DNA of 64,000 nt from an uncultured Acidobacteriota bacterium. Lineage in GTDB: Bacteria; Acidobacteriota; Thermoanaerobaculia; Gp7-AA8. Positions 18,087 to 63,849 of the stretch are shown here, one piece after another. Under the pieces are notes generated by a model. The model searched no databases, was not told the DNA's origin, and worked only from the letters and a program-made list of their open reading frames with translations. How positions within the stretch are numbered: position 1 is the first letter of the stretch; the number at the start of each line of letters is the position of its first letter. The stretch lies in contig CAVWUH010000002.1 in the NCBI GenBank assembly GCA_963758195.1, positions 2,061,560 through 2,125,559 on the forward strand, written 5' to 3'. Both the position numbers and the translations under genes were made by a program.

Positions 18087-18303
18087 TCAAGGGACGGGGT
18101 CCCAACCTCCAGGATTGAACGGGTGACAGCGCGCCAGACGGCGCATGCCGAGCCAGACGCCGCGCAGCGACGCCGTATTTCTCGACGGCGTGCATCGTAT
18201 ACACCGAGCACGTCGGCTCGAAGCGGCACATCGGCGGCAAGAGTGGGGAAATGAATCGCTTGTAGAAGCGAAGAAGGAGAAGCGCGAAACGACGGATGAT
18301 CAT
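18087..18303 (-). CDS. yidD: Membrane protein insertion efficiency factor YidD, frame broken
   Basis: [33 protein letters not shown] is present. The conserved tail [15 protein letters not shown] lies in another frame and ends at the TGA at 18089-18087. Confidence 0.8.
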
Positions 18304-18677
18304 GGCCGCCGCGCGTCGTTTACGACACGCTCCAGCACCCGCCTGAGGTCGCGGCTGAAATCCAGAAACGTCGTGTCGGCCGCATTCGGTTTGACATTGA
18401 CGACGATGTCGAGCGATCGGGCGTCGAGCCCAGTGGCTCGCGGTGACGCCGATAGGTCTCGCGCGTCCATCGCTTCAGACGATTGCGAACGTGAGCTTTC
18501 CCGAGCTTCTTCGTGGCGGTGATCCCGATGCGGGAGTAAGACAGTCCATTGCCGGCAACGAAGAGAACCGCAGTAGCGGGAAAACAGCTTCTGGCCCGTT
18601 TCATAGACATGGACGAACTCGCGACGTTTCGCTAGTCGTCTGTCTTTCGGCAAAGCCTCGGACCGAAGGCTTTCCAC
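18300..18677 (-). CDS. rnpA: Ribonuclease P protein component, 2 frame breaks
   Basis: RLAKRREFVHVYETG is in frame 1, IGITATKKLGKAHVRNRLKRWTRE in ORF 18320-18610, and LDIVVNVKP back in frame 1. The gene lies directly downstream of rpmH. Confidence 0.8.
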   Translation of the reverse strand: MESLRSEALPKDRRLAKRREFVHVYETGQKLFSRYCGSLRCRQWTVLLPHRDHRHEEARESSRSQSSEAMDARDLSASPRATGLDARSLDIVVNVKPNAADTTFLDFSRDLRRVLERVVNDARRP

Positions 18678-18692
18678 CGGTGATTTTGATGC

Positions 18693-18833
18693 TTAGACCG
18701 CGAGGCGCTTGCGGCCTTTGCGGCGCCGGCGCGAAAGGACGGCCTGTCCGTCCTTCGTCCGCATGCGGACGAGGAAACCGTGCGTGCGCTTACGCCGGCG
18801 ATTGTTCGGTTGAAAGGTACGTTTCGATCCCAT
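18693..18833 (-). CDS. rpmH: 50S ribosomal protein L34
   Basis: Hand translation gives [46 protein letters not shown] (46 aa). It is below the length cut-off of the ORF track. Confidence 0.95.
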
Positions 18834-18955
18834 TTGCCTAACCCTCTGAAAAGAAAGCGGTGAGTATAGTCGGCGCGGACAAGACGGTCAACGACCGTAC
18901 ACGGCGATCCGCGGGACGAGCGCGCAAACGGCGGAAGAAGAGACGGATATTCCAT

Positions 18956-50655: not shown

Positions 50656-51813
50656 TTACTCGATCCGAAATTCCTGCTTGATGTCGTAGCTCTCGCCCGT
50701 CGCGGACTCGTCGATCAGAACCGTGAGCGTGTACCGGCCGGCGGCGAGTGTGGAAAACGGGAGCGGGCCTCGCAGGATGTAGCACCCGGGTCGTGAGGCC
50801 ATCCGCACCGGCTTCAGTTCCTTCTCCCGTGTCACTCGGTCCGTCGAAGTTCCGTCCAGCGGACCAGCGATGAGCACCTGGAACGTCAGCGCAGGAACTT
50901 CCGGCTTGGATGCGCAAAACTGAACCGTCCAGGTGGCGTCGTCACGGTTTTTGAAAACAGTATCGGAATGGGCTGCTGCGAACGGATCCGTTGCAGATCG
51001 TGCATCGATCGATCCGCTTCGGAGCAGGGTCAGATGCGATAACGGCGGCGCGCCGCTGCCGGCAACCGCAGGCTCGTCGATCTCGGCCGCCGCCGGTGTC
51101 TTCTCGGTTGCCTCGGGAGCCGCAGGGATCGCGGAGGGGGTGCCCGGTGGCTGTGTCTTGGGCGTTGGCGTGACGGGATCCACTCCACCCGTCAGCGCCC
51201 ATGCCGGAACCTCGGTGAGATCGGCACTGGCGATCGCTTTTCGAATGGCCACGGAATTGGCGCGTCCGAAGTCGGTGCGCCCTGGGTCACGCTGATGTCT
51301 GTCTGTCGACGGATCCTCGACGAAGACCACCTCGACTCGCGACATGTCGAACTTCTGCGCGTCTGCGCGCTCCCAGACCCAGATGTCGCGCGCGCCCTTC
51401 GCAGTGTCTGCGACGCCCATCTGGTCGTTGGTCTGACCGGCGATCCTGGTGGCGGCACCCAGTACGATGTAGACGCGGCCGCGGTCTGTCAACGCTCCCC
51501 GCTTGTTTTTTTCGATGAATGTCTTGTCCGCGTAGGCCACCCGTGCGTTGAACTCGTCCTTGAACTCGTTGACCGGTGTGCCGGGCGACGGGTCGCGGCG
51601 AGCCCAGAAGAGGTCGATGAAATGATTGGCCTCCTCGTCGGTCTTCACCTTGCGCCAGGCGCGCTGCTCATCCGAAGTCATGATCCACTGCGCCGGCCCC
51701 TTGCCCCACTCCTCGAGTTTCGGCGAGAGCGCTGCGAATGCTGAAGAGGCGATGACGCAAAGCAGGGTGAGACCGATGAATGCCTTCAAACTCTGTCCTG
51801 GTGCGCTGACCAT
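50656..51813 (-). CDS. GWxTD-domain protein, secreted
   Basis: Signal peptide. FIDLFWARRDP and RGALTDRGRVYIVLG are the GWxTD-domain signature, with A in place of W. Confidence 0.7.
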   Translation of the reverse strand: MVSAPGQSLKAFIGLTLLCVIASSAFAALSPKLEEWGKGPAQWIMTSDEQRAWRKVKTDEEANHFIDLFWARRDPSPGTPVNEFKDEFNARVAYADKTFIEKNKRGALTDRGRVYIVLGAATRIAGQTNDQMGVADTAKGARDIWVWERADAQKFDMSRVEVVFVEDPSTDRHQRDPGRTDFGRANSVAIRKAIASADLTEVPAWALTGGVDPVTPTPKTQPPGTPSAIPAAPEATEKTPAAAEIDEPAVAGSGAPPLSHLTLLRSGSIDARSATDPFAAAHSDTVFKNRDDATWTVQFCASKPEVPALTFQVLIAGPLDGTSTDRVTREKELKPVRMASRPGCYILRGPLPFSTLAAGRYTLTVLIDESATGESYDIKQEFRIE

Positions 51814-51830: not shown

Positions 51831-51863
51831 GGATGACGAAGTCGGCTCCGGCGCCGAATCAGC
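51831..51863 (-). repeat. attC remnant (ORF-proximal arm only) marking the distal end of the array
   Basis: GGATGACGAAGTCGGCTCCGGCGCCGAATCAGC closely matches the right arm of the attC at 55352-55447 (GGGAAGTCGGCTCCAGCGCCGAGTTGGAC). No left arm is present, and it abuts the GWxTD gene start. Confidence 0.6.
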
Positions 51864-52335
51864 TGCGGCCCCGTTTGAAAGGTACGTTGTGTTCTCGAAG
51901 TGTCGCGGATGCAAGTTCGACCAGGTGATCGTGCTTGAACTGGTACCAGGCCTCGGTTCGACCGACCGATTCGAGAACGGCGCGAAACGCGCGGAAAGCG
52001 CCTCGCCCCCGAATGGCATTCTGGAGATTTGACGAGAGTGGCTCTCGCTGCTGGTCTGCGAATGCCTCCATGAAGGTCCACTCGTGAATCTCAAATTTGT
52101 CGGGCATGGCGATCCACTTACCGTCTCGTTCGGCGATTTCGCGAAGTTTCGCGACGTCTTCGGGTGACCATTCCCACTCGAAGCCATCTGTCTCGTCGCC
52201 CTCCTCGATCACCCCCATGTCGGAATTCAGCACGGTGAGGAACTCGCCTGTCTCACGGCTGACGTATACACGCGCTTCTTCCGGTAAGCAGTCAAGTTCC
52301 TCGGCAAGAGCGTCGATCGGAACCGGTAAGGTCAT
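51859..52335 (-). CDS. UPF0158-family protein (last cassette)
   Basis: YVSRETGEFLTV, WIAMPDKFEIHEWTFMEAF and NAIRGRGAFRAFRAVLE...WYQF fit the UPF0158 pattern. The family assignment is from memory. Confidence 0.6.
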   Translation of the reverse strand: MTLPVPIDALAEELDCLPEEARVYVSRETGEFLTVLNSDMGVIEEGDETDGFEWEWSPEDVAKLREIAERDGKWIAMPDKFEIHEWTFMEAFADQQREPLSSNLQNAIRGRGAFRAFRAVLESVGRTEAWYQFKHDHLVELASATLREHNVPFKRGRS

Positions 52336-52345
52336 GGCGACAAGC

Positions 52346-52444
52346 GGCTAACGTCTCCAGCTGACCGGCTTCGGCCCACGCGGAGAACGTGAAAGTAAGC
52401 GTATCAGACGGCGGGCCGAAGTCCGGTCCAACGTTGAGTTAGGT
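52346..52444 (-). repeat. Integron attC site
   Basis: GGCTAAC...GACCGGCTTCGGCCC // GGGCCGAAG-T-CCGGTC...GTTAGGT. The GTTAGGT core is duplicated at 52449-52455. Confidence 0.8.
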
Positions 52445-52496
52445 AGGAGTTAGGTGGCCTGTGTGCCAGCGCCGAGAACTTCGGCCGGCGGAGATG

Positions 52497-53008
52497 CTAT
52501 TGGATGGGCAAGCCAGGCTGAAAGACGTTCTCGAAGTTCTGCTGCGCCGGTTCCAACAACTCGCTTTGGAATTGCGATCCACTCCCATCCGGGCGGATAA
52601 GCAGGAAGAACTCAGCATTCTCTGTTGCACGCGTGAAGTCACACCACGGGAATCGTGCGTCGACGTGGTTGCACCATGTGCGCGCCCTAGTGTCGTCGAG
52701 TTCAATAAAGTGTGTCTCGAGTGAGTGCTTGTCCGCGGCCCGAAGCCTTGCCACTCGTGCTTTCGCGTGCGCCTGAGATCCGAATATAAACGCGACGATC
52801 GCTCCGGCGGCAATCACTGTCGTGACGGCAGCGGTAGTGGCGCCAGCACATAGGCAGCAATCACAACGGCGAAGCAGACGCCGAACGAGATGACGCCGCC
52901 ACGATCTGGCGGAAGACTCTCTCTGATGAGTGCCTGACAGCCTTTGAAGGACTCCCCAGGAAGGGGGCGAATCTCGAATCGCACGAAACTTGACAATGTG
53001 ATAGCCAC
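52497..53008 (-). CDS. Cassette ORF, membrane-anchored hypothetical, 1 frame break near 52830-52870
   Basis: The N-terminal part with its TM helix (VISFGVCFAVVIAAYVLAPL) is in ORF 52814-53008. The continuation (VTTVIAAGAIVAFIFGSQAHAKARV...NVFQPGLPIQ) is in ORF 52497-53147. Confidence 0.5.
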
Positions 53009-53038
53009 CCAACGTCGGGTGCAGCGGCCTAGTTGGGC
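53007..53038 (-). repeat. Truncated attC (core plus one arm)
   Basis: ACCCAAC-GTCGGGTGCAGCGGCCTA-GTTGGGC resembles the right arm of the attC at 53570-53671 fused directly to a left core. Confidence 0.5.
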
Positions 53039-53067
53039 CGCCGTTTCTAGCGCGTTCCAAGGGAGCG

Positions 53068-53550
53068 CTACTTTCTGCGAGGCGGAACTTGAATGATGAG
53101 CGTCCGTTCGTGATTACGCCCGGAAGTTGAGAAATCCGATGCGGCAACTACTTTGAACTCGACAGGCGCCAGCCCTCGGCCGTGCTCCAGGCGCGCGTAG
53201 AACCCGGCAGGAGCACCACCGTGCATGAACCATTCGCTCGGAATGTCCCCGACTCGAAACCCAGCGCGGTCGAAGGCCCCGCGTGGTTCGATATTCGTCA
53301 CTCCAAAGAACCTAATGTCTCGACCATCGTAGTTGCCGGTCTTCACCATTCCCGTGCTGAAACCGAGGTCACTTTGCAGATCAGGCGCGGCAAACCGAAG
53401 CCAGTACCATTCGTCAATCGCGCGATCGTAGACACTGAAGGCGAGCAAGAAGAGCAGGAGTATCAGCGTGCCGCCGACATACACCAACCTGCGAATGTGC
53501 GCGGTGAAGGAAGTCCCGAGAACGTCCATCTTCGCATCTACCTTCGTCAT
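53068..53550 (-). CDS. Cassette ORF, membrane-anchored hypothetical (possible PDZ-like domain)
   Basis: N-terminal TM helix LVYVGGTLILLLFLLAFSV. The segment GVTNIEPRGAFDRAGFRVGDI is PDZ-like. Confidence 0.55.
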   Translation of the reverse strand: MTKVDAKMDVLGTSFTAHIRRLVYVGGTLILLLFLLAFSVYDRAIDEWYWLRFAAPDLQSDLGFSTGMVKTGNYDGRDIRFFGVTNIEPRGAFDRAGFRVGDIPSEWFMHGGAPAGFYARLEHGRGLAPVEFKVVAASDFSTSGRNHERTLIIQVPPRRK

Positions 53551-53569
53551 TTCGCGTAACCCCCGGTCG

Positions 53570-53671
53570 GCCTAACGGCCTGCCGCTTAGCCGCAGTAAC
53601 CGCACGCGAAAGAGTACCAAGCAACGACACTCGCGGTGCGGTTGACGTCGGCTGCAGCGGCCGAGTTAGGC
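53570..53671 (-). repeat. Integron attC site
   Basis: GCCTAAC...GTTAGGC. The TAA stop of the upstream cassette ORF (53666-53668) lies inside the core. Confidence 0.8.
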
Positions 53672-54151
53672 GTCTGCCCCCGATGACCACCAGTCGATGA
53701 CCGATTCTGGCGAAACACCGTTGGCAATCAAAGCTGAATTGATTTGTCGTCCCTGCGCCTCTGGAAACTCGCTGCCCAAATAGACGCCTCCGAAGGCCTC
53801 TCGAAATCTGGCATTCGAGGAGATCTCGTCTAGCACGCGGTCAAGAAATTCGACACCGCGATACCACATGAATGTCTCAAGACATCCGGCGCCGATCATT
53901 CCCAGATCAAGCTCGTGGCACCGCGCGATCGATGCGCGCAGAATCTGCCAGCAGGCACCTGGATCAGTCTGGATAAGGTCATCGACCTCTTCGCACGCGT
54001 CGCCGTGAGGATTCTCAACTGAGCGTCTCTTCATTTCCTCGAGCATCACCTGGGCTTCTTCGCGTGTGCTCGGTAATAGACCAGATGGGCGAATGTGCTC
54101 AAGATATCCGAGGTATCCGCTGACAATTTTCTCTTGCTCATCGCGTGTCAT
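53666..54151 (-). CDS. Cassette ORF, hypothetical (161 aa)
   Basis: Clean ORF bounded by attC sites. No recognisable family. Confidence 0.6.
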   Translation of the reverse strand: MTRDEQEKIVSGYLGYLEHIRPSGLLPSTREEAQVMLEEMKRRSVENPHGDACEEVDDLIQTDPGACWQILRASIARCHELDLGMIGAGCLETFMWYRGVEFLDRVLDEISSNARFREAFGGVYLGSEFPEAQGRQINSALIANGVSPESVIDWWSSGADA

Positions 54152-55301
54152 TCGGACGCCTAAACGTCCCCAGCTGAGCCGCTTCGGGCCACGCCATGAA
54201 CGTTGTAAGTAAGCGTATCAGACGCTGGGCCGAAGTCGGCTCCAGCGTCGAGTTGGGCATCGAGTGTGTGATGCCGACGTTGATGCGGGAGGGTATCCTG
54301 AACCGATGGCGCTTAAGGCTGCTGCTGGAGAGGACTTCGAATCGAAGACGCTTCGCGAGCGATTCGCCGTTCACGCAAGTGATGATGTGCTGATCCTGCG
54401 TGCCGAACCGCTGTAAGCTGTCCAGGAACTTTTCTACAGCTTTGTTAAATGCCTCCGGGTTCTCGCGCGCCGAGCCGTGACCGGCTCCCGGGATGCTCAC
54501 TCGGGGGGCGTTCGGGAGCAGCCGCGCGAGCTCGCCGTTCACGAATTTGTGTAGGGGGATCGTGTTCTCGCCGCTGACAATTAGAACCGGCATGCGCAGC
54601 CGCCGGACCTTACTTTTAGGCACGTTCGGAAACGGGTCCCTCGATAAGGTAGCCGCCTTGAAAAAGCGAGAGTTCTGCATCGCCAAGGCACGGCCCTCAG
54701 GTGGTAGACGGTCGAACCTGCCCAACCCGCCGAATCCGTCCACCAGAATCCTCATCGCGCGCTGGTCATCTCCCGTCTTGAACGCTGCCGCGGCGGGTTT
54801 CCAGATGGAGGCCATAAACTCCTGATAAAGAACTCTGCCTTTCGCGTCATCCTTTGCCCAGCGGTGTACGGGCGGCTCAGCCAACACCAGGCTGCGGACC
54901 ATCTCGGGGTGTTGGATGGCCAGCACCAGCGCCGCCGACGCTCCGGCGGAGGAGCCCACGAGGTGTACGCGCCCGAGGTCGAGGTGGCGGATAAAAGCAG
55001 CGAGGTCGTCGGCGTCCGAATAAGCTGAACGGTAGCTATCGGTCAGTGGGTTTTGATTCGGGTAGTTGTAGCGGCGGCTGTAAGAGATAACCCGGTAGCG
55101 CCGGGAGAACGCCTCGGTCTGCGCACCCCACGAGCGATAATCCCCCTGTCCACCGTGCAGCAGAATGAGCGGCTCGCCTCGGCCCCGTTCGACGTAATGA
55201 AGCTCGACGCCGTTAACCCGAACTCTCACCAAGCCGTCGCTCTGGCCAGCGGCCGGTCGGCAAAGCATCATCACCAGGAAGAAGAACGTAAGTCTAGCCA
55301 T
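54138..55301 (-). CDS. Cassette ORF: secreted alpha/beta hydrolase; the annotated 3' end reads through the attC
   Basis: Signal peptide, oxyanion-region LLHGGQGD and nucleophile elbow VGSSAGA. The hydrolase fold ends near AVEKFLDSL (about 54400). The remaining 95 or so codons run through the attC without a stop. Confidence 0.7.
   Translation of the reverse strand: MARLTFFFLVMMLCRPAAGQSDGLVRVRVNGVELHYVERGRGEPLILLHGGQGDYRSWGAQTEAFSRRYRVISYSRRYNYPNQNPLTDSYRSAYSDADDLAAFIRHLDLGRVHLVGSSAGASAALVLAIQHPEMVRSLVLAEPPVHRWAKDDAKGRVLYQEFMASIWKPAAAAFKTGDDQRAMRILVDGFGGLGRFDRLPPEGRALAMQNSRFFKAATLSRDPFPNVPKSKVRRLRMPVLIVSGENTIPLHKFVNGELARLLPNAPRVSIPGAGHGSARENPEAFNKAVEKFLDSLQRFGTQDQHIITCVNGESLAKRLRFEVLSSSSLKRHRFRIPSRINVGITHSMPNSTLEPTSAQRLIRLLTTFMAWPEAAQLGTFRRPNDTR
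54158..54258 (-). repeat. Integron attC site (conserved subfamily)
   Basis: GCCTAAAC...AGCTGAGCCGCTTCGGGCC...GTAAGCGTATCAGACGCTGGGCCGAAG-T-CGGCTCCAGCG...GTTGGGC. Confidence 0.8.
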
Positions 55302-55351
55302 CCGCGTCGTCGCCTCTTATCAGCCAAACCTACAGGCCTTCGATTCAGCGA

Positions 55352-55447
55352 GCCTAACATCCCCAGCTGAGCCGCTTCGGCCCACGCGAGACATGTGCAA
55401 GTAAGCGTATCAGACGCTGGGAAGTCGGCTCCAGCGCCGAGTTGGAC
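55352..55447 (-). repeat. Integron attC site (conserved subfamily, 3-nt deletion in one arm)
   Basis: GCCTAAC...AGCTGAGCCGCTTCGGCCC...GTAAGCGTATCAGACGCTGGGAAGTCGGCTCCAGCG...GTTGGAC. Confidence 0.8.
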
Positions 55448-55578
55448 GGCGGTTCGCGCGACGCTACGCGGACTCTCTCTGCTCGCGGCCTGCCCTTGAC
55501 GGCAACGGCAAAGCCCAAAAGCACGAAGGCGCAAACTCGATCCGCATTACTGCGGTTAGCTGCCAAGTCCTCTCACTC

Positions 55579-55908
55579 TCATTGGAGATATCGACGCCAA
55601 AAACTCCAGAACCCAAATGGGTTTCCCTTGAATCGTCGCGCCCACGCAGACCGTTCTTCTTCGGGAAGGATTTCGTTGGCAACGTATCCGAAAACGAAAT
55701 AAAAGGGGACGAGCATGCCAGCGTACAGAATGAACACGCCGAATCCGATTGTCCACAGCCATTTCGGTGCAGATGGCCACAACCACATCGCCACCATGCC
55801 GACGATGAACGCGATCGGAAACAGAGCACACGTGAGAGCCCCGAGGCCAAGTAACTTCCGCTCAACCTGCGTGAGATCCGTTCGCCGCACAGTGTCTTCG
55901 TCGTCCAA
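55579..55908 (-). CDS. Cassette ORF, small 3-TM membrane protein
   Basis: LGLGALTCALFPIAFIVGMVAMWLW, WLWTIGFGVFILYAGMLVPFYFVFGYV. The start codon (TTG or GTG) is uncertain and lies in or near the attC core. Confidence 0.55.
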   Translation of the reverse strand: MDDEDTVRRTDLTQVERKLLGLGALTCALFPIAFIVGMVAMWLWPSAPKWLWTIGFGVFILYAGMLVPFYFVFGYVANEILPEEERSAWARRFKGNPFGFWSFWRRYLQ

Positions 55909-56021
55909 CGTCCTCCGGTTCAGCGGCGCGGTGCCACACTAGTGTGAGCGGCAGGACCAGAGCAGGTTACTCTGAACATGGCAGCGAACGGCACCGCGTC
56001 CGCTGCAACCGCGAGTTAGGT
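55903..56021 (-). repeat. Integron attC site (119 bp variant)
   Basis: GTCCAAC...CCGGTTCAGCGGCGCGGTGCC // GGCACCGCG-T-CCGCTGCAACCG...GTTAGGT. The TAA stop of ORF 56016-56435 lies in the core. Confidence 0.8.
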
Positions 56022-56435
56022 GCCGCGCTTGGAGCCGAAGGCATCCCAGTACGCCGTGGCGGTTACATCGATTTCTTCAACCGAGGTCGGCGTCCCATCT
56101 GCCCTAGCGACGCGAAGTCCCCCGTACTGAATGTCAAACTGACCGTTTGAGCAGATGACGCGCACACCGGTCGAGATGCTCGTCGCTGAAAGGATCTCTG
56201 GCTTGAGCTCGGCGAGGACGTTCACGTCGGTGGTGCGTCGATCGTCATTCCAGTTCAGGTACTCGAACTTTTCGCTGCTCACGAGCGTCAGATCGATCGC
56301 ATCGCAGGGAGGGTTCATGATCTGAGTGAGGTAGCCGATCTCAACGCGCAAGGTCAGATCGCCCGGAACGACGCCTCGGACACTTGCAATCCCACCATCG
56401 TGCAGGAGATTCCAGATCTCTTCCGGGTTATCCAT
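56016..56435 (-). CDS. Cassette ORF, hypothetical (139 aa)
   Basis: Clean ORF from an ATG 10 nt below the attC at 56445-56543 to a stop inside the next attC core. No recognisable family. Confidence 0.6.
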   Translation of the reverse strand: MDNPEEIWNLLHDGGIASVRGVVPGDLTLRVEIGYLTQIMNPPCDAIDLTLVSSEKFEYLNWNDDRRTTDVNVLAELKPEILSATSISTGVRVICSNGQFDIQYGGLRVARADGTPTSVEEIDVTATAYWDAFGSKRGT

Positions 56436-56444
56436 GGCTCAGGC

Positions 56445-56543
56445 GGTTAACGTTTCAAGCTGAGCCGCTTCGGCCCACGCGAGGAACGTGAAGGTGAGCG
56501 TATCAGACGCTGGGCCGAATTCGGCTCCAGCGAAAAGTTAGGT
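56445..56543 (-). repeat. Integron attC site (conserved subfamily)
   Basis: GGTTAAC...AGCTGAGCCGCTTCGGCCC...GTGAGCGTATCAGACGCTGGGCCGAAT-T-CGGCTCCAGCG...GTTAGGT. Confidence 0.8.
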
Positions 56544-56604
56544 GCCGTTCGCCCCGTGGTTCGGTCCGGAGTTCAACATGCGTTCGATTTCATCGTCGCC
56601 GTTC

Positions 56605-56928
56605 TCAACGCGTTTGCGGGCGCTTGAGAAACCGCAACAGCAGCGAACGTGAACAACAGCAGAACGTGGCGATGCTCACGAAATACAACGCTACTGATGC
56701 GGCTGGCGCGTAGTAGAGCCAAGCCTCCGGAGTCATGATCGCTCCGACGATCCTGTCACGGGTGTCTTTCGCGACCCCAGCGGCCGAGAGGAAGAACGCG
56801 ATCCACCCCGTGCCGAAATACACGAAAACTCCATACGCGACGAACCCTACGCCGGCAGCTACCACCGTGCCGATGCCGAGCCACGCCACGACAGCGAATG
56901 AGGCGCGTTTGTTGAAGGTTCGCAGCAC
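56605..56928 (-). CDS. Cassette ORF, small multi-TM membrane protein
   Basis: FAVVAWLGIGTVVAAGVGFVAYGVFVYFGTGWIAFFLSAAGV and YYAPAASVALYFVSIATFCCC. Confidence 0.55.
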   Translation of the reverse strand: MLRTFNKRASFAVVAWLGIGTVVAAGVGFVAYGVFVYFGTGWIAFFLSAAGVAKDTRDRIVGAIMTPEAWLYYAPAASVALYFVSIATFCCCSRSLLLRFLKRPQTR

Positions 56929-56968
56929 GTTCCCGATCTCAGCCCGTCGTTCCGCACATGATTCAGGT

Positions 56969-57067
56969 ACCTAACGGTCCGCGGTTCACCGGCTTCGGCC
57001 CACGCGGAACGTGTGCAAGTAGTCTAGCAGCGAGCGGGTCGAAGTCCGGTGCAACCGCTAGTTCGGC
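56969..57067 (-). repeat. Integron attC site
   Basis: ACCTAAC...CGCGGTTCACCGGCTTCGGCCC // GGGTCGAAG-T-CCGGTGCAACCGCTA-GTTCGGC. The TAG stop of ORF 57058-57534 abuts the core. Confidence 0.8.
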
Positions 57068-57534
57068 GGCGTGAGGACTACTCGCACACTCTGCGGGAGG
57101 TCGTTCCACTCAAGCACCCTGCATTCGCAATACTGATTCTGCAGGTCGACAAGGGCCTCCGAGGGGACGCCTGAAACTGGGATGGGATCGCCAGTAGCTT
57201 TGGCGCGAATGACACGGCCCGACACCGGCCACACAACAACCTCGACGAGCCGGCCGGGAAACAGGCCTTCAGTCGTCGCGTTTAGGAAGTGCCAAGAGTC
57301 GATCGAGACGTACTCGGAATCATCCGTCTCAATGAACCACGCGTTCGGGCAGCACGGCGGACCGCTGCAGGTGATTTGGCTCCACACGCGGCGAACTGAA
57401 AAGGACATCGTTACAACGGTGCCGGTTCTCGCCTCGGCGCGGGCGTTTCTCCGCGCACGTAGCTGGAGCAACGACAGATCGCGATACTTCTCTGCGAGTT
57501 CCTCGGCCGTCGCTGCTCGTTCAGTGTGTGTCAT
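57058..57534 (-). CDS. Cassette ORF B of a two-gene cassette, Cys-rich hypothetical (158 aa)
   Basis: Overlaps ORF 57521-57784 by 14 nt, with no attC between them. No recognisable family. Confidence 0.6.
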   Translation of the reverse strand: MTHTERAATAEELAEKYRDLSLLQLRARRNARAEARTGTVVTMSFSVRRVWSQITCSGPPCCPNAWFIETDDSEYVSIDSWHFLNATTEGLFPGRLVEVVVWPVSGRVIRAKATGDPIPVSGVPSEALVDLQNQYCECRVLEWNDLPQSVRVVLTPPN

Positions 57535-57784
57535 TCAGCCGCCGAACGTTCCAAAGAATCCGGCGACCCGCAGCCACGGCGGCGACAGATACCGACAGGC
57601 TCACAATCGAGATGACCGCAAGGAGCTGTCTCGAAATAGCAGGTTCGAAGCGCACGCCCTCGCAGCCTCGACTCGTCCACCTGCCGCCAGCGTCCAAGCA
57701 TCTGTCTTCCTGCCAGAAACGAACCTGCGGGATCGCGAGTGCGACAGCGAACACGACGACGAGGGTGATGATTCGGACTCTCAT
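57521..57784 (-). CDS. Cassette ORF A of a two-gene cassette, 2-TM small membrane protein (87 aa)
   Basis: TM helices IITLVVVFAVALAI and LLAVISIVSLSVSVAAVAA. The ATG is 7 nt below the attC core at 57791. Confidence 0.55.
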   Translation of the reverse strand: MRVRIITLVVVFAVALAIPQVRFWQEDRCLDAGGRWTSRGCEGVRFEPAISRQLLAVISIVSLSVSVAAVAAGRRILWNVRRLNDTH

Positions 57785-57790
57785 TCAGCC

Positions 57791-57891
57791 GTCCAACGGC
57801 CTGCGGTTCAGCGGCTTCGTGCCGCGCGCAAACCGTGAAACCGAGAGTAGCAGACGGCGGCACGAAGTCCGCTGCAACCGCTCAGTTAGAC
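57791..57891 (-). repeat. Integron attC site
   Basis: GTCCAAC...CTGCGGTTCAGCGGCTTCGTGCCGC // GCGGCACGAAG-T-CCGCTGCAACCGCTCA-GTTAGAC. Confidence 0.8.
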
Positions 57892-58034
57892 GGCGACGGG
57901 ATACCCGATCTCTTCGAGATCTCTTCTCAACATGTGAACCTGGCGAAGGCGATACCCCGCGCTGCACCCCGGGAGGGGTTAGACGTCCGAGTGAGTGTGC
58001 TGCCCCAGCAAGACCGGGCGACTACCCACGGTCT

Positions 58035-58259
58035 CTATGAGGTGACCCTCTCCCATGAGTCGCGGATTGTCTGGAGATCCTTGGCGGATGATATGTAGAA
58101 CTCGATGTGGCCGCACGAGGTGCAAGCGTATCTGTCCGGAGCGCTGGTCGCACCAAAAATCAGGCTTGGTTTCAGTGTGATCTTCTCGCTCTGCAGGGGG
58201 TGCCCGGCCTGACGATAGACATTGGTGCTATTGCAGCGGGAACATGTGCCGTTCCTCAT
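58035..58259 (-). CDS. Cassette ORF, zinc-ribbon protein (74 aa)
   Basis: MRNGTCSRCNSTNVY...YACTSCGHIEFY has two CxxC pairs. It resembles Zn-ribbon nucleic-acid-binding (DUF2082-like) proteins. The family assignment is from memory. Confidence 0.6.
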   Translation of the reverse strand: MRNGTCSRCNSTNVYRQAGHPLQSEKITLKPSLIFGATSAPDRYACTSCGHIEFYISSAKDLQTIRDSWERVTS

Positions 58260-58301
58260 GTGGCCTCCTTGATGTAGACGTGTTGAACGTGACGGGTCGC
58301 C

Positions 58302-58400
58302 GCCTAAGGTCCTACGCTTCAGCCGCGTAGCCCGCACGCGAGATCGTAGCACCACGATGAAAAAGCAGCGGGCTACGTCGGCTGCAAGCGTGAGTTAGGT
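58302..58400 (-). repeat. Integron attC site
   Basis: GCCTAAG...CTACGCTTCAGCCGCGTAGCCCGC // GCGGGCTACG-T-CGGCTGCAAGCGTGA-GTTAGGT. Confidence 0.8.
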
Positions 58401-58435
58401 GGCGGCCAGCAGGACGGCGAAGTCTCTTGCACACT

Positions 58436-58792
58436 CTACTTAATGCGGTGGTAGCGAAAGGTATCGCCGCTCTCCTCAACGACAACAAGCACATCGGCGC
58501 CTAGAGTGAACGTGTCCACGCACGCGCACTTCTTGCCATCCAAGAAGAGGCGGTTGCCCTCAACGCGGTACGTTCCGCGATCACTACCCCAGAGGAGAAA
58601 GCTTCGAAAGCGCAGAACGAACGTCCCGTCGGCGTTAAGAGTGAGTTTAGTGATGCTCGGTCCAATTTGACTCATCTGACTGCCAGTCGTCCACCGGCCG
58701 ACGATTGGCGACGTGGCCTGCGAAGGAGGCGGCGTGATAGACGAGCAGGCCGTCAAGAGAATCAGGAAGCCGACCGTCAGAGTCATTCGCAT
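58436..58792 (-). CDS. Cassette ORF, lipoprotein (118 aa)
   Basis: MRMTLTVGFLILLTAC contains a lipobox LTAC. The mature part looks like a small beta-barrel or lipocalin-like domain. Confidence 0.65.
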   Translation of the reverse strand: MRMTLTVGFLILLTACSSITPPPSQATSPIVGRWTTGSQMSQIGPSITKLTLNADGTFVLRFRSFLLWGSDRGTYRVEGNRLFLDGKKCACVDTFTLGADVLVVVEESGDTFRYHRIK

Positions 58793-58798
58793 CTCGCC

Positions 58799-58836
58799 AC
58801 CTAACGGGCTACGTCGGCTGCACGCGTGGGTTGGAC
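58799..58836 (-). repeat. Truncated attC (core plus one arm)
   Basis: ACCTAAC-GGGCTACGTCGGCTGCACGCGTGG-GTTGGAC equals the right arm of the attC at 58302-58400 joined directly to a left core. Confidence 0.55.
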
Positions 58837-59660
58837 GGCGCCGCGGCCCAGGACAGGAACAAAGGGCGATGAATCTCAAGGATTGGGAGATCGGCCAAGT
58901 CATCGAGAAATCCTGCGGACCTAAGGGCAGCACGGGACTCATCTTCGTGCTTTACCGTGTCGAGCCACCAAGCGTGGTAAACGAGCAGGACCACCTCGTC
59001 GATGGAGAGGTGTGCCCGAAGTAGACGCCGGTAGTTCTCGCGGTCAGATCCGGATGCAGATTCAACAAACGACACAAGAAAGAGAGCGTTGCCGTTCAAT
59101 GGAGTCGTAAATTCTTTCCACGATTTGTGGAAATCATCGTAACCATCGGTCAACGCCTCTATGAGATCATACGGTCTGTCGCCTTGCGCCTCCCACTGGT
59201 GAGCGGTGTCGTCCGCATTCCTGACACCTGAGACGAGATATGACGCAATCTTCTGCAGTGCGCTTCGACCATAGAGGTCGTGAGAAGCGGGAGTTACGTT
59301 TCGATTGAAGAATTGAATGTCGGTCTGACGAACCTGGATTCCATCGATTATTCGCACCCGCAAGTCCAATAGTGTGAAAAACGTTCGTTCAAAGTTCTGA
59401 CGTCGTAACTCTTCCGAGTTCGCTCGAATCTCGACCTCCTGCCGGTCAAGTTGCTCGCGCTGCGCCAGGTATGCCACGTACACGAACAGGACACCTGACG
59501 CTGTCCACAGCGGTCCGGCGGTGCCGGCGACGAATGTCGCAAATTCAACAAGGTGTGAAGCGCCAAACTGAAACGTCGCCCAGGGCGACGCGGCACCGCC
59601 AGCGACAGCGAGAGTGCCCGCTGCAGCCGAGATGATCTGCTGCTTCGTCTTGTGACGCAT
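58809..59660 (-). CDS. Cassette ORF, putative abortive-infection (putAbiC-like) membrane protein
   Basis: Two N-terminal TM helices, then YLAQREQLDRQEVEIRANSEELRRQNFERTFFTLLDLRVRII, the pattern I associate with Pfam putAbiC. This is from memory and has not been searched. The ATG is at 59660. Confidence 0.6.
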   Translation of the reverse strand: MRHKTKQQIISAAAGTLAVAGGAASPWATFQFGASHLVEFATFVAGTAGPLWTASGVLFVYVAYLAQREQLDRQEVEIRANSEELRRQNFERTFFTLLDLRVRIIDGIQVRQTDIQFFNRNVTPASHDLYGRSALQKIASYLVSGVRNADDTAHQWEAQGDRPYDLIEALTDGYDDFHKSWKEFTTPLNGNALFLVSFVESASGSDRENYRRLLRAHLSIDEVVLLVYHAWWLDTVKHEDESRAALRSAGFLDDLADLPILEIHRPLFLSWAAAPSNPRVQPT

Positions 59661-59696
59661 TGAATGCTTCGTGCGATGGCTACTCGATGTAGCGAG

Positions 59697-59790
59697 GTCC
59701 AACGGTCGCCGTTCAGTCGCGGCAGCCGCTTACAAAAGAGTAGCATTTACGACGACCGCGAGGCGGGTGCCGGTAACGGCCGAGTTCTAC
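59697..59790 (-). repeat. Integron attC site (divergent, weaker pairing)
   Basis: GTCCAAC...CGGTCGCCGTTCAG...CCGGTAACGGCCGA-GTTCTAC. Confidence 0.55.
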
Positions 59791-60004
59791 GGCTAGTTCG
59801 AAATCAACCAATCTTTTGCTCCACGTCGTCAACGATTCGGAGAACGAAAGCACGCAATTGGTCGGCCGCGATCGTCGCCTGCCACGTGACTGTACCGAAC
59901 TCCGTATATTGGACACGCGTAACTCTGAACTTGCCGCTCAAGCGCCGCAAGTTTTGAATGAAACGCTTGTTTACGCCCGTTCATCGAAGAGCGTCTTTCC
60001 GTCG

Positions 60005-60104
60005 CCCTAACGTCTCTAGCTAAGCCGCTTCGGCCCACGCGAAGAACGTGAAGGTAAGCGTATCAGACCCTGGGCCGAAGTCGGCTTCAGCGGCCAAGCT
60101 AGGC
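60005..60104 (-). repeat. Integron attC site (conserved subfamily), first in the array
   Basis: CCCTAAC...AGCTAAGCCGCTTCGGCCC...GTAAGCGTATCAGACCCTGGGCCGAAG-T-CGGCTTCAGCG...GCTAGGC. Confidence 0.8.
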
Positions 60105-60123
60105 GCAGCCGCAGGCGATCCGG

Positions 60124-60483
60124 TCAGGCATCTACCCATGCTTCAAACCGAGACATCCAACCCTCGAACTCTTGTTCGGCGGTAGCTTGGACCTGAGCCT
60201 TGGCGGCCTCGAAATCTCCCATCCAGAGATTCTGCTGCTGAACCGTGTGGACAAGAAAGATCTCGGCGGCGCGGACAATTTTCCGAATGAGCGCCGGTTT
60301 CGCGAACACGTCGTCGGAAAGCGGTGAGCCACCGGCTCGATACATGCGTCGAGCGCGGTCCAAAAGAATTTCCACATCGCATCGCTCGAGAACACCGGGC
60401 GCATCGGCTTCCAGACGATTGCAGAACTCGTCAAGAACTTGAGTCTGCATTTCTCGGTACGCGCGGGGTGAGATCAGGTCCAT
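60124..60483 (-). CDS. First cassette ORF, hypothetical (119 aa)
   Basis: Clean ORF about 100 bp downstream of the intI remnant. No recognisable family. Confidence 0.6.
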   Translation of the reverse strand: MDLISPRAYREMQTQVLDEFCNRLEADAPGVLERCDVEILLDRARRMYRAGGSPLSDDVFAKPALIRKIVRAAEIFLVHTVQQQNLWMGDFEAAKAQVQATAEQEFEGWMSRFEAWVDA

Positions 60484-60585
60484 CGGTTCATACTATTCGA
60501 TGGCCGAACGCAGTGGCAGACCATGGGGACGCCGAGATCTGGCGCCTGGGCGATAGGCTGTGTGTGGCCAGGTGCAAAACATCCT

Positions 60586-61059
60586 TCATCGCCGGTCCCC
60601 TGTTATGAGCGTGTCCATGGGACTACGAACGCCGCGGCTGCCGGTCTGTTGCAGGACGTGCGTATAGATCATGGTCGTCTTGACGTCGGCGTGGCCGAGG
60701 AGCTCCTGGATTGTGCGGATGTCGTAGCCGTCTTCCAGGAGGTGCGTGGCGAAGGAGTGACGCAAGGTGTGGCAGCCGGCATTTTTCTCGATGCGCGCGG
60801 CTTGGACGGCAGCCTTTGCCGCCCGTTGTACTGCAGATTCCTCGAGGTGATGTCTTCGCTGGACTCCGCTCCGCGGGTCGATGGAAGTTCGGGTGGCGGG
60901 AAAGACGTACTGTCACGCGATTTCGCGTCCGGCGCCTGGATATTTGCGTGCGAGCGCGTCGCAGGGCCAGACGTCGCCGACACGGTGAGCGACGTCCCGT
61001 TTGTGCTCGGTCGCCGAAACCTCTTGAAGCTAAGGCAACGTGTCGAAGCCGTGCGACGT
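60586..61059 (-). pseudogene. intI: Integron integrase remnant (C-terminal ~155 codons, two in-frame stops)
   Basis: Hand translation gives ...[148 protein letters not shown]. It contains the IntI-specific ALARKYP..W.WQYVFP...DPRSG..RRHH insertion and the catalytic HxLRH...Y box. The stops are TGA at 60915-60913 (replacing Trp) and TAG at 61032-61030. No N-terminal half is present in any frame. Confidence 0.85.
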
Positions 61060-61079
61060 TGACACGCTATCGGTTAACG

Positions 61080-61544
61080 TCACGATCGGCTTCCTGCAGC
61101 GTTCCAACGGACGACAAATTCAGAAGGCTGAGGCTCTCCAAGTTGCGGTCGCACAACGCGTCGTGCCGTCGGCTGCATCAGTGCGACCTTGAACCCATCG
61201 GCACGTTGTTCAATGACCTTTACGGTTGGCGTGCGGCCGGGTGTCGGCTCAATTCGCAACATCAGATGCGGTGGTCTTGCGAATGGAGTTTCGTAAAAGA
61301 TTTCGCGCGCATCCTCAGCGGCGTATAGGGGAAAGAAGATAACTCCTTCCGTCCGCGTGGGAACGTTATCGCTGGAAATAGGCGGTTGCGCGATGGCTGC
61401 TCCATGCTCTATGGACACGCGCCGCCGGCGGCGTCTTCGGACGGAGTTGGCAATTCCTGAGGTGACCAGTGTGAGGATGGAAACACCAATGCCGGAGAAG
61501 ATCCACGAACCATTTGCTCGCAGCCAGTCAAGCAACGACGCCAT
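61080..61544 (-). CDS. Membrane-anchored hypothetical protein (possible H-type-lectin-like domain)
   Basis: N-terminal TM helix WIFSGIGVSILTLVTSGI plus an R6 run. GVIFFPLY...FARPPHLMLRIE...VKVIEQRADGFKVAL is reminiscent of H_lectin domains, but the match is weak. Confidence 0.5.
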   Translation of the reverse strand: MASLLDWLRANGSWIFSGIGVSILTLVTSGIANSVRRRRRRRVSIEHGAAIAQPPISSDNVPTRTEGVIFFPLYAAEDAREIFYETPFARPPHLMLRIEPTPGRTPTVKVIEQRADGFKVALMQPTARRVVRPQLGEPQPSEFVVRWNAAGSRS

Positions 61545-61577: not shown

Positions 61578-62570
61578 CTACTTCGCCGCTCGTTCTTCAA
61601 TCACACGCGCCAAATGAAACCGCAACGGCTCCAATAGCGTGTAATGCGACGTAATGCGGCTCTGTCGTTCGTTCTCATCGCGGAAGAGATCGCGCATCGT
61701 CGTCGCGCGCTCGTCGTACCAGGTTTTGGAGACTTCACCGCGGGCTCGCTTTTCGTCGAGGACGAGCATGATGTGGTTGCGGTCGATGATCTCGGGGTGG
61801 TGGTTGACGCCGAGGAAACGGGGCATGGTGCCGGCGGGGTCGCGGGCGAGCTCGATCATGGTGAGGGCGGTGCTTCCCTCGGCTTCGAAGGCGATGGGCT
61901 GGCTCTTGCCGGGTTGGTCGAGGATGAGGTCGAAGAGGCGGTTGTCGATGACGCGGAAGTGCTGGTGGTCGGGGAGCTCGCGGGCGAATTGCGAGAACCA
62001 GGGATGCTGCATGGCTTCGCGGGAGAGGCGGTTGGTGGGCATGCCGCTGCTCTTCTCTTCGCGAAGCTCGACGTGGGCGACGCCGCTCCATCGGCAGACG
62101 AGGCCGAAGGAGTGGCAGATGGCGAGCATGGCCGCGCTGGGATGGGCGAGGATGTCGTCGAAGAGATGGAAGAGCGGCGCTTCCCACTCGGTGGTCTCGT
62201 CGACGCCCTGACTCCATTCGTGCTTGCCGTCGTTGAGGCGCGGGTCGAGATGACCGGGACCGCCGGTGCCGAGGTAGAGCTGGAAGCGGCCGTTCGGCGA
62301 CTCGGGGATGGCGTTGCGGCGGCGGACGTCGTAGGAGAGCACGCGCACGCGCGCGTCGATGGCATCGAGCTCGTCGCGGAGGGATTCCGCTCCCTCCTGC
62401 ACGGCATGCACGAGCGAGTCATGCCCGACGTTGGGCCAGAAGTGATTCATGTCCAGCAGCGCGACGTCGATGCAGTCGGTGCGCGGCGGCGGTACGGAGT
62501 CCTCGACGCGGAGGAACTCGAAGACTTCGGTTTGAGTAGCGTTCATGAAGGTTCTGTTTGCGAGTGGCAA
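61578..62570 (-). CDS. Class I glutamine-amidotransferase-like protein
   Basis: Nucleophile elbow LAICHSFG and the His region FLGVNHHPE. The start may be the internal ATG (MNATQTEV) at 62546. Confidence 0.7.
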   Translation of the reverse strand: MPLANRTFMNATQTEVFEFLRVEDSVPPPRTDCIDVALLDMNHFWPNVGHDSLVHAVQEGAESLRDELDAIDARVRVLSYDVRRRNAIPESPNGRFQLYLGTGGPGHLDPRLNDGKHEWSQGVDETTEWEAPLFHLFDDILAHPSAAMLAICHSFGLVCRWSGVAHVELREEKSSGMPTNRLSREAMQHPWFSQFARELPDHQHFRVIDNRLFDLILDQPGKSQPIAFEAEGSTALTMIELARDPAGTMPRFLGVNHHPEIIDRNHIMLVLDEKRARGEVSKTWYDERATTMRDLFRDENERQSRITSHYTLLEPLRFHLARVIEERAAK

Positions 62571-62573
62571 GAG

Positions 62574-63703
62574 CTACACCACTCCGTACTCCGTCTCGGC
62601 GACGATCTCGTCGACGACATCCTTGAGATCGTTCCGCCGCGCGTAGGCGGCGAGCTGGCGATCGGCCCCGGTGCCGCGGCGCATGATCTCACGCGCGTAA
62701 TAGACCTCTTTGCGCGAGCCGAGCTCGTCGACGACGTCGTCCACGAAACTCGAGAAGCTCGTCGAGCAATTCTCCGAAGGGAACTTCCTCGCGGCGGCCG
62801 AAGTCGATGAGCTTGCCGCCGATGCCGAAGCGCGCCGCGCGCGATTTGTTCTCGTTGAGGAGCGCGCGGCGATAGAGGCGCCAGCCCATGTTCTGTTTGT
62901 AGATGCGATAGAGCTTGACGGTGATCGCCTGGAAGAGCGCGGCGAAGCAGATGGTCTCGTCGATGCGCATCGGCACGTCGCAGATGCGGTACTCGAGCGT
63001 GGGGAAGAAGGGATGCGGACGCACGTCCCACCAGATCTTCTTGGGGTTGTCGATGCAATGCGTGCGGACGAGCGTGTCGACGTATTCGTCGTAGTCGCGC
63101 GAGGGTGTTGAAATGATCGGGGATGCCGGTGCGCGGGAAGCGCTCGAATACTTTCGCGCGATAGCTCTTCCAGCCGGTGTTCTGTCCGCACCAGAAGGGC
63201 GAGTTCACGGAGAGGGCGAAGATGTGCGGCAGGAAGTAGCGCACGGCGTTCATGATTTCGATCCGAACGTGTCGGGGTCTTCGACGGCGACGTGGACGTG
63301 CAGTCCGAAGATCAGGTTGGCGCGCGCGAGCATCTGCAGCTCGTACACGATCTGGTCGTAGCGTTCGTTGGACGTAATGGGCACTTGCGCCCAGTGCGAG
63401 ATCGGATGCGTGCCGGCGGCGGCGATGCGCAGTCCGTTCTCGCGCGTCAGACGTGATGATCTCGCGCCGCAGTCTGGTGATCTCACGCCGCGCCTCGGCG
63501 ATGTTCTGGCAGATGGGCGTGCCGACTTCGATCACGGGATCGTGCATTTCCCGTTTGATCTCGTCCTTCAGCCGCTTCTCTCCCTCGGTGAACATCTCCT
63601 GGATGTGCGACTTGAGCAGGCGCGTCTCCGGGTCGACGACCTGGAACTCCTCTTCGATGCCGAGCGTGAAAGATGGAACAGGCATGGGGGAAGGATATGC
63701 CAT
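62574..63703 (-). CDS. Carboxylate-amine ligase (glutamate-cysteine ligase family 2, YbdK-like), at least 4 frame breaks
   Basis: FTLGIEEEFQVVD, FGLHVHVAV, LSVNSPFW, TLEYRICDVP and a C-terminal EIVAETEYGVV are distributed over all three reverse frames (ORFs 62543-63703, 63250-63486, 62689-63024, 62574-63191). Confidence 0.8.
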
Positions 63704-63814
63704 CGGAGGGCGGGCTTATAGCCCGCCGATTCTTTGGGCGGGTGGGGACGAGCCATGGACACGCCCTTCGACACCCCCCACCCAAAAAAAGCGGCGGGCT
63801 ATAAGCCCGCCCTC
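63704..63814. mobile_element. MITE/REP-like nested-hairpin element, copy 2
   Basis: The termini are GGAGGGCGGGCTTATAGCCCGCCG and GCGGCGGGCTATAAGCCCGCCCTCC. There is an internal GGGTGGGG/CCCCCCACCC pairing and an A7 run. It starts immediately upstream of the ATG at 63703. Confidence 0.75.
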
Positions 63815-63849
63815 CAGGGGAGCATTCGGGGAGCGTCGCGAGGTGAGAA

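Follow-up and report, generated by a model that had tools for sequence, protein, structure and literature searches.

Chromosomal integrons, together with a taxon-specific class of attC recombination sites, have already been described for Acidobacteria (PMC8352920), and inverted integron integrases (IntIs) are a recognised sub-clade (PMC8352920, PMC3575428, PMC9668308). A chromosomal integron has been considered sedentary if it is present in 100% of the genomes of a species or carries >19 attC sites (PMC4889954). For the recombinogenic attC bottom strand, a structural rule has been formulated, with an extrahelical base at position 16, a conserved T at position 23/24 and a required stem of 6 bp (PMC5027507). 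Here, we describe an array of attC sites and gene cassettes in a 64-kb stretch of a contig from an uncultured Acidobacteriota bacterium (~5.08 Mb; 5,080,856 bp, a size that fits a chromosome). This stretch, at its full length, is called the window below, and all coordinates are positions within it. Very probably, the locus is an “inverted integrase” chromosomal integron whose own integrase has been lost.

The array spans positions 51837-60104. Its ten full sites, 96-119 bp long, are accompanied by a degraded site and three remnants, and the sites alternate with open reading frames (ORFs) of 48-387 codons, all on the minus strand (Table 1). It comprises 14 cassette units of 0.3-1.3 kb each, co-oriented and mostly with a single ORF, each ending in an attC site, and the ORFs are mutually unrelated (best pairwise E 0.001 over 38 amino acids). 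The ten sites fold into long imperfect hairpins of -17 to -35 kcal/mol with DNA parameters, and their alignment yields a common structure of 27 base pairs, 13 of which show compensatory changes. Paired cells made up 89.5% in this structure, compared with 21-46% when the 3′ partners were slid by 1-3 columns, and none of 500 shuffles reached the observed covariation. Every site carries an RYYYAAC-like heptamer at its start and a GTTRRRY-like one at its end, corresponding to the R′ and R″ cores. Two bases on the 3′ arm are never paired in any of the ten sites, namely one C and one T; counted from the outer end of the GTT core, the C is the 16th base, or the 17th in three sites, and the T is at 23/24. 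The stem between them is exactly 6 bp long, and both bulges lie on the arm opposite the AAC. The extrahelical bases of the published rule (PMC5027507) are thus found in 10 of 10 sites, the sole departure being that the first one is a C, where a G is usual. Judged by sequence and predicted fold, the sites have the canonical geometry of attC bottom strands, and because their bulges match the published rule, the plus strand is the recombinogenic bottom strand, and the cassettes read on the minus strand. The R″-L″ arm of each cassette’s own attC site lies 3′ of its ORF, as it does in all cassettes described so far.

The ten sites were used to build a covariance model (R1). Run unfiltered over the 64 kb, it scored them at 76-97 bits on the plus strand and at 8-21 bits on the minus strand, and it found no further attC copies in the window outside 51.8-60.1 kb. 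An Rfam scan of the window returned tRNA-Asn only, with no curated family covering the sites. An earlier note on this stretch, made from its letters alone, had listed eleven palindromes of 94-119 nucleotides (nt) and three half-copies with these cores, and it had deduced a minus orientation of the cassettes from one unpaired T. All of this stands. Ten of the palindromes fold into long hairpins and the eleventh (a10) is merely a degraded copy; the half-copies exist, one as a 3′ arm only (h1) and two with internal deletions (h2 and h3). As claimed, the R″ core contains the stop codons at 53666 and 56016 and directly adjoins the one at 57058. The unpaired T is real and invariant, and a second invariant unpaired base, the C seven nt further out, had been missed; the orientation follows from the position of the bulges opposite the AAC. 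The same note was right that the ORFs are unrelated and on one strand, and overstated the likeness of five “nearly identical” attC copies, which are actually 76-84% identical.

The only R1 match outside the array (26 bits on the plus strand and 19 on the minus strand) is a perfect palindrome at 2401-2487 with 33-bp arms (CTTCTGTGTAGCGACGGCCGCCTCGGCCGTCGG, followed by an 18-nt loop and the reverse complement). As an attC candidate it was rejected as unrelated, having neither AAC/GTT cores nor bulges and scoring on both strands.

A pattern derived from the conserved stem was scanned over one genome per species for 185,579 species and returned 30 loci, mostly in metagenome-assembled genomes (MAGs) of Acidobacteriota/Thermoanaerobaculia. 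In these loci R1 detected 143 sites, always on a single strand within a locus, spaced 0.4-1.2 kb apart and numbering up to 14 per 8 kb. Across the 143 sites, compensatory changes were seen in 25 of the 27 pairs, in an alignment that was fitted to the model and hence leans towards the structure. The consensus cores are RYCYAAC and GTTRGRC; 134 of the sites have the bulged T and 120 the bulged C. What emerges is an attC family spanning the taxon, a kind known from Acidobacteria (PMC8352920). Arrays of the same family were also seen on contigs binned elsewhere, namely L015, L018, L027 (JBKJPI01, Burkholderiales MAG), L008 (Chiayiivirga), L009 (Gemmatimonadetes) and L012 (Actinomycetota). These arrays hold as many as 14 sites per 8 kb, and the stretches concerned showed no intI; such arrays could reflect either cross-phylum transfer of whole arrays or mis-binning.

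At the head of the array lies an intI pseudogene, which corresponds to the C-terminal 45% of an integron integrase. It matches the NCBIfam integron integrase model TIGR02249 with E 3.3e-58 (profile positions 180-315 of 315, 197 bits), compared with only 82-88 bits for the best of the XerC/D/A models, and it matches PF00589 with E 2.8e-22. The comparison with the VchIntIA structure 2a3v (E 3.9e-41) includes the IntI-specific insertion “ALxRKYPxA...WQ..FP....DPRSG..RRHH”. The translation of 61029-60607 on the minus strand is 64% identical to residues 184-323 of a full-length relative, the 328-residue IntI of locus L022. The remnant retains the IntI-specific extra domain, the HxxR and H motifs and the catalytic Y. 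The N-terminal ~175-183 residues, with the core-binding domain and the first catalytic Arg, are absent from every frame of the window. In the part that remains, the internal Met of “TMLP” has changed to Thr, and 8 codons are missing relative to the closest relatives (P0152-P0156). Because the N-terminal half is lost and two stop codons interrupt the rest, the integrase gene is dead, and no recombination is catalysed from the locus.

In place of the 5′ half of intI there is an ORF at 61080-61544 on the minus strand (154 codons, with a transmembrane (TM) helix, a run of seven Arg and a GC content at third codon positions (GC3) of 0.56), for which family searches gave no match and none of the retrieved loci has a homolog. 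A possible attC stump upstream of the remnant (61072-61107, “GGTTAAC...TCGGCTTC...”), which would imply a cassette insertion into intI, was rejected, as the covariance model found nothing there.

The remnant lies on the cassette strand with its 3′ end towards the array, and the same co-oriented layout was found in 8 of 8 relatives checked, these being the loci that hold both intI and attC sites (L002, L003, L014, L016, L020, L022, L045 and L046). Full-length intI genes are present in L014 (321 residues) and L022 (~328 residues). This is the layout called “inverted integrase” or “reverse integron”, a description that concerns gene arrangement only. In the relatives, GTTAGAC or GTTAGCC is located just ahead of the first cassette ORF; because GTTCGGC occupies the equivalent place here, it is likely the junction between attI and the first cassette. 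The earlier note’s placing of an IntI-type remnant at this end was thus correct, to which we add that the remnant is co-oriented with the cassettes, arranged in the inverted layout and dead. Its term “chromosomal integron” holds for the array and the remnant and fails for a complete integron. In the terms of IntegronFinder, the locus is a cluster of attC sites lacking an integron integrase (CALIN) with a neighbouring intI pseudogene, because the integrase is dead: two or more attC sites are present and no functional intI is close to them. A complete integron would have an intact intI with the IntI-specific additional domain, and the sequence here is clearly IntI but a pseudogene. With 11-14 sites, the array also does not reach the size of >19 attC sites set for sedentary chromosomal integrons (PMC4889954).

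Table 1. Features of the array, the integrase remnant and reference genes, by position in the window. Bit scores are from the covariance model R1, built on the ten sites other than a10. aa, amino acids.
Feature	Position	Strand	Description
intI pseudogene	60586..61041	-	C-terminal 45% of integron integrase; counterpart of residues ~176-323 in a relative of 328 aa
In-frame TGA	60913..60915	-	Replaces conserved Trp of “...EWAWQYVFPA”
Second intI stop	61030-61032	-	
Candidate attI/first-cassette junction GTTCGGC	60503..60509	-	82 nt after intI stop, 20 nt before first cassette ATG
attC a1	52346-52444	+	Intact; 96.9 bits
attC a2	53570-53671	+	Intact; 77.1 bits; ORF stop inside R″
attC a3	54158-54258	+	Intact; 87.1 bits
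attC a4	55352-55447	+	3-nt deletion in 3′ arm; 85.9 bits; poor self-fold, -17 kcal/mol
attC a5	55903-56021	+	Intact; longest loop; 75.9 bits; ORF stop inside R″
attC a6	56445-56543	+	Intact; 92.7 bits
attC a7	56969-57067	+	Intact; 91.8 bits; ORF stop abuts R″
attC a8	57791-57891	+	Intact; 96.9 bits
attC a9	58302-58400	+	Intact; 77.2 bits
attC a10	59697-59790	+	Degraded; cores GTCCAAC/GTTCTAC; ~6-nt deletion in 3′ arm including bulged T; 12.5 bits, E 0.3
attC a11	60005-60104	+	Intact; 96.4 bits on +, 15.2 bits on -; bulges C17/T24
attC remnant h1	51837-51865	+	L″-R″ arm only; distal array end
attC remnant h2	53007-53038	+	R′ core ACCCAAC fused to L″-R″ arm; 9.5 bits
attC remnant h3	58799-58836	+	R′ core ACCTAAC fused to L″-R″ arm; 5′ arm and loop deleted
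Cassette 1 ORF	60124..60483	-	119 aa; no assigned function
Cassette 2	59791..60004	-	Very short; doubtful 48-aa ORF 59804-59950; may be ORF-less
Cassette 3 ORF	58809..59660	-	283 aa; membrane-anchored helical protein, probably of the putAbiC family (PF16872)
Cassette 4 ORF	58436..58792	-	118 aa; predicted lipoprotein; weak TIGR03066 paralogous-family match
Cassette 5 ORF	58035..58259	-	74 aa; zinc ribbon; PF09855 E 2e-4
Cassette 6	57058..57784	-	Two ORFs that overlap: one of 87 aa with two hydrophobic helices (57521-57784), one of 158 aa (57058-57534)
Cassette 7 ORF	56605..56928	-	107 aa; three hydrophobic helices
Cassette 8 ORF	56016..56435	-	139 aa; no assigned function
Cassette 9 ORF	55579..55908	-	109 aa; membrane protein
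Cassette 10 ORF	54138..55301	-	Alpha/beta hydrolase; PF00561 E 5.8e-22, residues 44-277 of 387
Cassette 11 ORF	53666..54151	-	161 aa; DUF6869, PF21746 E 9e-8
Cassette 12 ORF	53068..53550	-	160 aa; one TM helix
Cassette 13	52445..53006	-	No clean ORF; coding signal split between frames 52814-53008 and 52497-~52810
Cassette 14 ORF	51859..52335	-	158 aa; weak UPF0158 match
GWxTD-domain core gene	50656-51813		Start 24 nt from distal array end
dnaA	18860-20491	+	Preceded by yidC/mnmE/mnmG on minus strand

The array differs from its surroundings in composition. Its GC content is 58.9%, compared with 62.8% for the rest of the window, and every 8.3-kb window outside the array is higher (minimum 60.4%), which bears out by computation what had been judged by eye in the earlier note. 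GC3 is 0.58-0.73 in the cassettes and 0.75-0.88 in the flanking genes. With their low GC and GC3, mutual unrelatedness and general lack of family matches, the cassettes look foreign. The direction of the genes diverges at 18.2-18.9 kb, between yidC/mnmE/mnmG on the minus strand and dnaA on the plus strand. Because these genes form the usual neighbourhood of oriC, the origin was assigned near dnaA, and the array would lie 31-41 kb to the right of the presumed oriC, in line with the 30-40 kb estimated before. The intergenic region between yidC and dnaA (18230-18859) is the likely oriC itself, and the GC skew of the window keeps its sign there.

In relatives with a working integrase, the order is intI, attI and cassettes along one strand; IntI binds the folded bottom strand of each attC site, and promoterless genes are thereby stockpiled. 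At the present locus the plus strand serves as the bottom strand, with the 14 cassettes read on the minus strand. Since the array is located to the right of dnaA and the presumed oriC, its attC bottom strands would be on the lagging-strand template, where folding and excision would be favoured, if the origin is assigned correctly. The opposite orientation was reported for 25 of 30 sedentary chromosomal integrons (Loot et al., PMC5371416). The five exceptions all belong to Xanthomonas, have <=22 cassettes and are eroded, often with inactivated integrases (PMC5371416), and it was suggested that integrase inactivation is selected to freeze excision (Loot et al., PMC5371416). By analogy, the small array and dead integrase described here would fit the Xanthomonas pattern for this orientation. 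In the order of events that we propose, the integrase would have been lost first, and the array would have been eroding since then through attC deletions, reduction of sites to stumps and disruption of genes.

The state of the array is in keeping with such a history. Nine attC sites are intact and 5 of 14 are damaged (a4, a10, h1, h2 and h3). Cassette 13, probably a disrupted gene, is left without a clean ORF, and the hydrolase ORF of cassette 10 lacks a stop codon. Damage to both sites and cassettes is what relaxed selection following the loss of the integrase would produce, and the array is probably now immobile. The remnants h2 and h3 share an odd architecture, in which the 5′ arm and loop have been precisely removed and the neighbouring cassettes fused; this looks like hairpin-mediated replication slippage.

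Several points weigh against our interpretation of the locus. R1 was trained on the very sites that it scored, so its in-window scores are circular, and the independent support comes from the other loci and from the covariation. No close relative with the same flanks, in which cassette gain or loss at this site could be seen, was found: exact-protein look-ups returned only contigs of the same population (L001, L032 and L033; run ERR11596053; 99.8-100% identical), and in a scan of metagenomes the GWxTD protein from the flank had homologs of only 33-49% identity, none of them close to attC or intI. An alignment of the spacers between intI and the first cassette from six loci contained no conserved attI beyond the GTT core. 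Near the array head there was no sigma-70-like candidate for a Pc promoter, and across the array, predicted promoters and terminators were no more numerous than expected from shuffled sequence. The GC skew over the 64 kb, uninformative at such a scale, marks no origin at 18.5 kb, and the replication direction is read from gene order. Finally, a second, intact intI may lie elsewhere in the ~5.08-Mb contig, beyond the 64-kb window.

Such a second integrase, excising and reshuffling cassettes in trans, would make the array a working reservoir rather than a frozen one, a scenario that we regard as unlikely yet worth keeping in view. In its favour, nine or ten of the attC sites are fully canonical, and about half of CALINs share a replicon with an IntI gene, so that they may be mobilised in trans (Cury et al., PMC4889954). 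The damage to 5 of 14 sites, with neighbours fused by stumps, suggests on the contrary that selection on recombination has been relaxed; there is no second intI within the 64 kb, and the closest relatives mostly have a broken intI too.

The condition of intI in these relatives admits another explanation. All of the best 120 database matches to the remnant (63-88% identity; P0152-P0271) are <260 aa long, including those on contigs of 11-247 kb, and many are ORFs of 150-160 aa that start at the Met of “TMLP”, including on contigs of 11-49 kb. The lesions differ from one locus to another: L042 and L043 have an internal deletion plus frameshifts, L044 and L045 have 5′ truncations, and L046 has one frameshift. 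Decay of intI therefore seems common in the lineage of the closest relatives, and either the integrase has decayed widely in this sub-clade or a C-terminal half-protein has been retained. Because the 120 closest relatives are so short, and many start at this Met with differing lesions upstream, the C-terminal ~158-160 residues (from the TMLP Met, with the attC-binding insertion and HxxR/H/Y) might be kept as an independent, selected ORF in this Acidobacteriota IntI sub-clade, which on the sequences at hand we consider improbable. Such a domesticated half-integrase, for example a regulator that binds attC or a stabiliser of fossil arrays, would mean something other than simple decay, and the copy in the window would then be a later, dead derivative.

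It is very unlikely that the integron is in fact complete and active, with integrase lesions that stem from errors of assembly or sequencing. The nearby GCS2 gene (62543-63703), split across frames, could signal assembly indels, but the N-terminal ~180 codons are absent in every frame and not merely frameshifted, the stop codons are substitutions, and an 8-codon deletion is present as well. An independent assembly (ERR11596053) agrees at 99.94-100% over 54377-60565, a stretch that ends short of the lesions. The remaining explanation, that these hairpins, which are GC-rich, intergenic and located downstream of ORFs, are repetitive extragenic palindromes or bacterial interspersed mosaic elements of a generic kind, or terminators, clustered by chance beside an unrelated Xer or phage integrase remnant, can be dismissed with near certainty, as the conserved AAC/GTT cores and one-sided bulge pair occupy canonical attC positions, the remnant scores far better as an integron integrase than as XerC/D/A and has the IntI-specific insertion, and the scattered single copies that the earlier note had named as its refutation were found neither elsewhere in the 64 kb nor in other genomes, which hold the family only as same-strand arrays, next to intI. 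We therefore retain the reading of an inverted-integrase chromosomal integron that has lost its integrase.

As the earlier note anticipated, few cassette products can be assigned, and families could be named for only a few (Table 1). The product of cassette 3 scores 20.3 bits against PF16872 (“putative phage abortive infection protein”), for which the cutoff is 22, while 47 of 49 aligned homologs from an exhaustive HMMER search pass this cutoff (best E 3e-27); it also matches phrog_8999, to which no function is assigned, with E 8e-13. Its AlphaFold (AF2) model, with a predicted local distance difference test score of 95, contains a helical hairpin at the N terminus, one very long helix, a beta-hairpin and a bundle of helices, and had no match with E <0.01 in the PDB or BFVD. 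A homolog with 62% identity is present in L034, from another sample, where it is followed by an attC-like hairpin, and a 35%-identical homolog of the cassette 12 product is located between two attC sites of the L014 array; both are in keeping with movement of cassettes within the family. When ten of the cassette proteins were searched with PADLOC, NCBIfam and PHROGs, nothing useful was returned except the weak TIGR03066 match of cassette 4 and phrog_8999 for cassette 3, and no toxin-antitoxin (TA) cassette was recognised in the array.

Two further features of the cassettes were observed. The ORF of cassette 10 runs for ~90 codons beyond the hydrolase domain (54138-54420, minus strand), through a 150-nt spacer and the whole of attC a3, and this tail matches translated attC sites of other loci. 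Between the stop codon and the attC site, 130-160 nt of apparently non-coding DNA are present at 57892-58034, 55448-55578 and 54259-54420, exceeding the gaps of other cassettes, where the stop touches the R″ core. Beyond the integrase remnant, the glutamate-cysteine ligase family 2 (GCS2/YbdK-like) gene at 62543-63703 on the minus strand is split between reading frames: the frame of profile positions 73-134 (63253-63486) is not that of the N-terminal part or of positions 140-206. Either the gene is a pseudogene or the split reflects indel errors in the assembly. Just upstream of it is an inverted repeat at 63705-63815, with 42-nt arms that are 86% complementary and a 27-nt spacer.

The locus is an ordinary chromosomal integron of a kind common in soil Acidobacteriota, and it adds one well-resolved example of soil Acidobacteriota chromosomal integrons with the inverted integrase layout. 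Orientation on the lagging-strand template, a small array, eroded attC sites and a dead integrase would together form a combination noted earlier for Xanthomonas, and a phylogenetically remote second case would lend weight to the notion that the orientation of replication limits the size of integrons and promotes the loss of the integrase. The 14 cassettes encode uncharacterised small proteins, including a divergent membrane protein, probably of the putAbiC family, with a fold that is predicted with confidence and unmatched, a content in keeping with how integron arrays are seen at present, as repositories of niche and defence genes. Neither point would surprise a specialist; what goes beyond routine annotation is the orientation parallel with Xanthomonas and the many truncated integrases among the relatives.

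Xanthomonas integrons are found at a fixed position next to ilvD. They have the classical divergent intI layout (PMC5371416), in contrast to the co-oriented layout described here. The inverted-integrase chromosomal integrons known from Treponema denticola and from further non-proteobacterial lineages of soil and fresh water (PMC3607928, PMC9668308, PMC8352920) share with our locus the co-orientation of intI, the position of its 3′ end at the array, the chromosomal location and cassettes mostly of unknown function. They differ in that the host here is Acidobacteriota-like and the integrase a truncated pseudogene, and the likeness is one of layout only. In the Vibrio cholerae superintegron, with its V. 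cholerae repeats, the attC sites are likewise fairly homogeneous, with the same geometry of extrahelical bases, and the cassettes are short, promoterless and mostly of unknown function; in contrast to it, our sites have a C and not the usual G as the first extrahelical base, and no TA cassette was recognised. From the class of CALINs with an intI pseudogene (PMC4889954), in which two or more attC sites lack a functional intI but have within 10 kb a pseudogene with the IntI-specific C-terminal and PF00589 matches, the locus shows no difference in kind; such pseudogene-adjacent CALINs numbered 15 of 279 (Cury et al., PMC4889954). The attC class of Acidobacteria (Ghaly et al. 2021, PMC8352920) is, like the family described here, taxon-specific and conserved in sequence and structure across a phylum, and the two are presumably the same.

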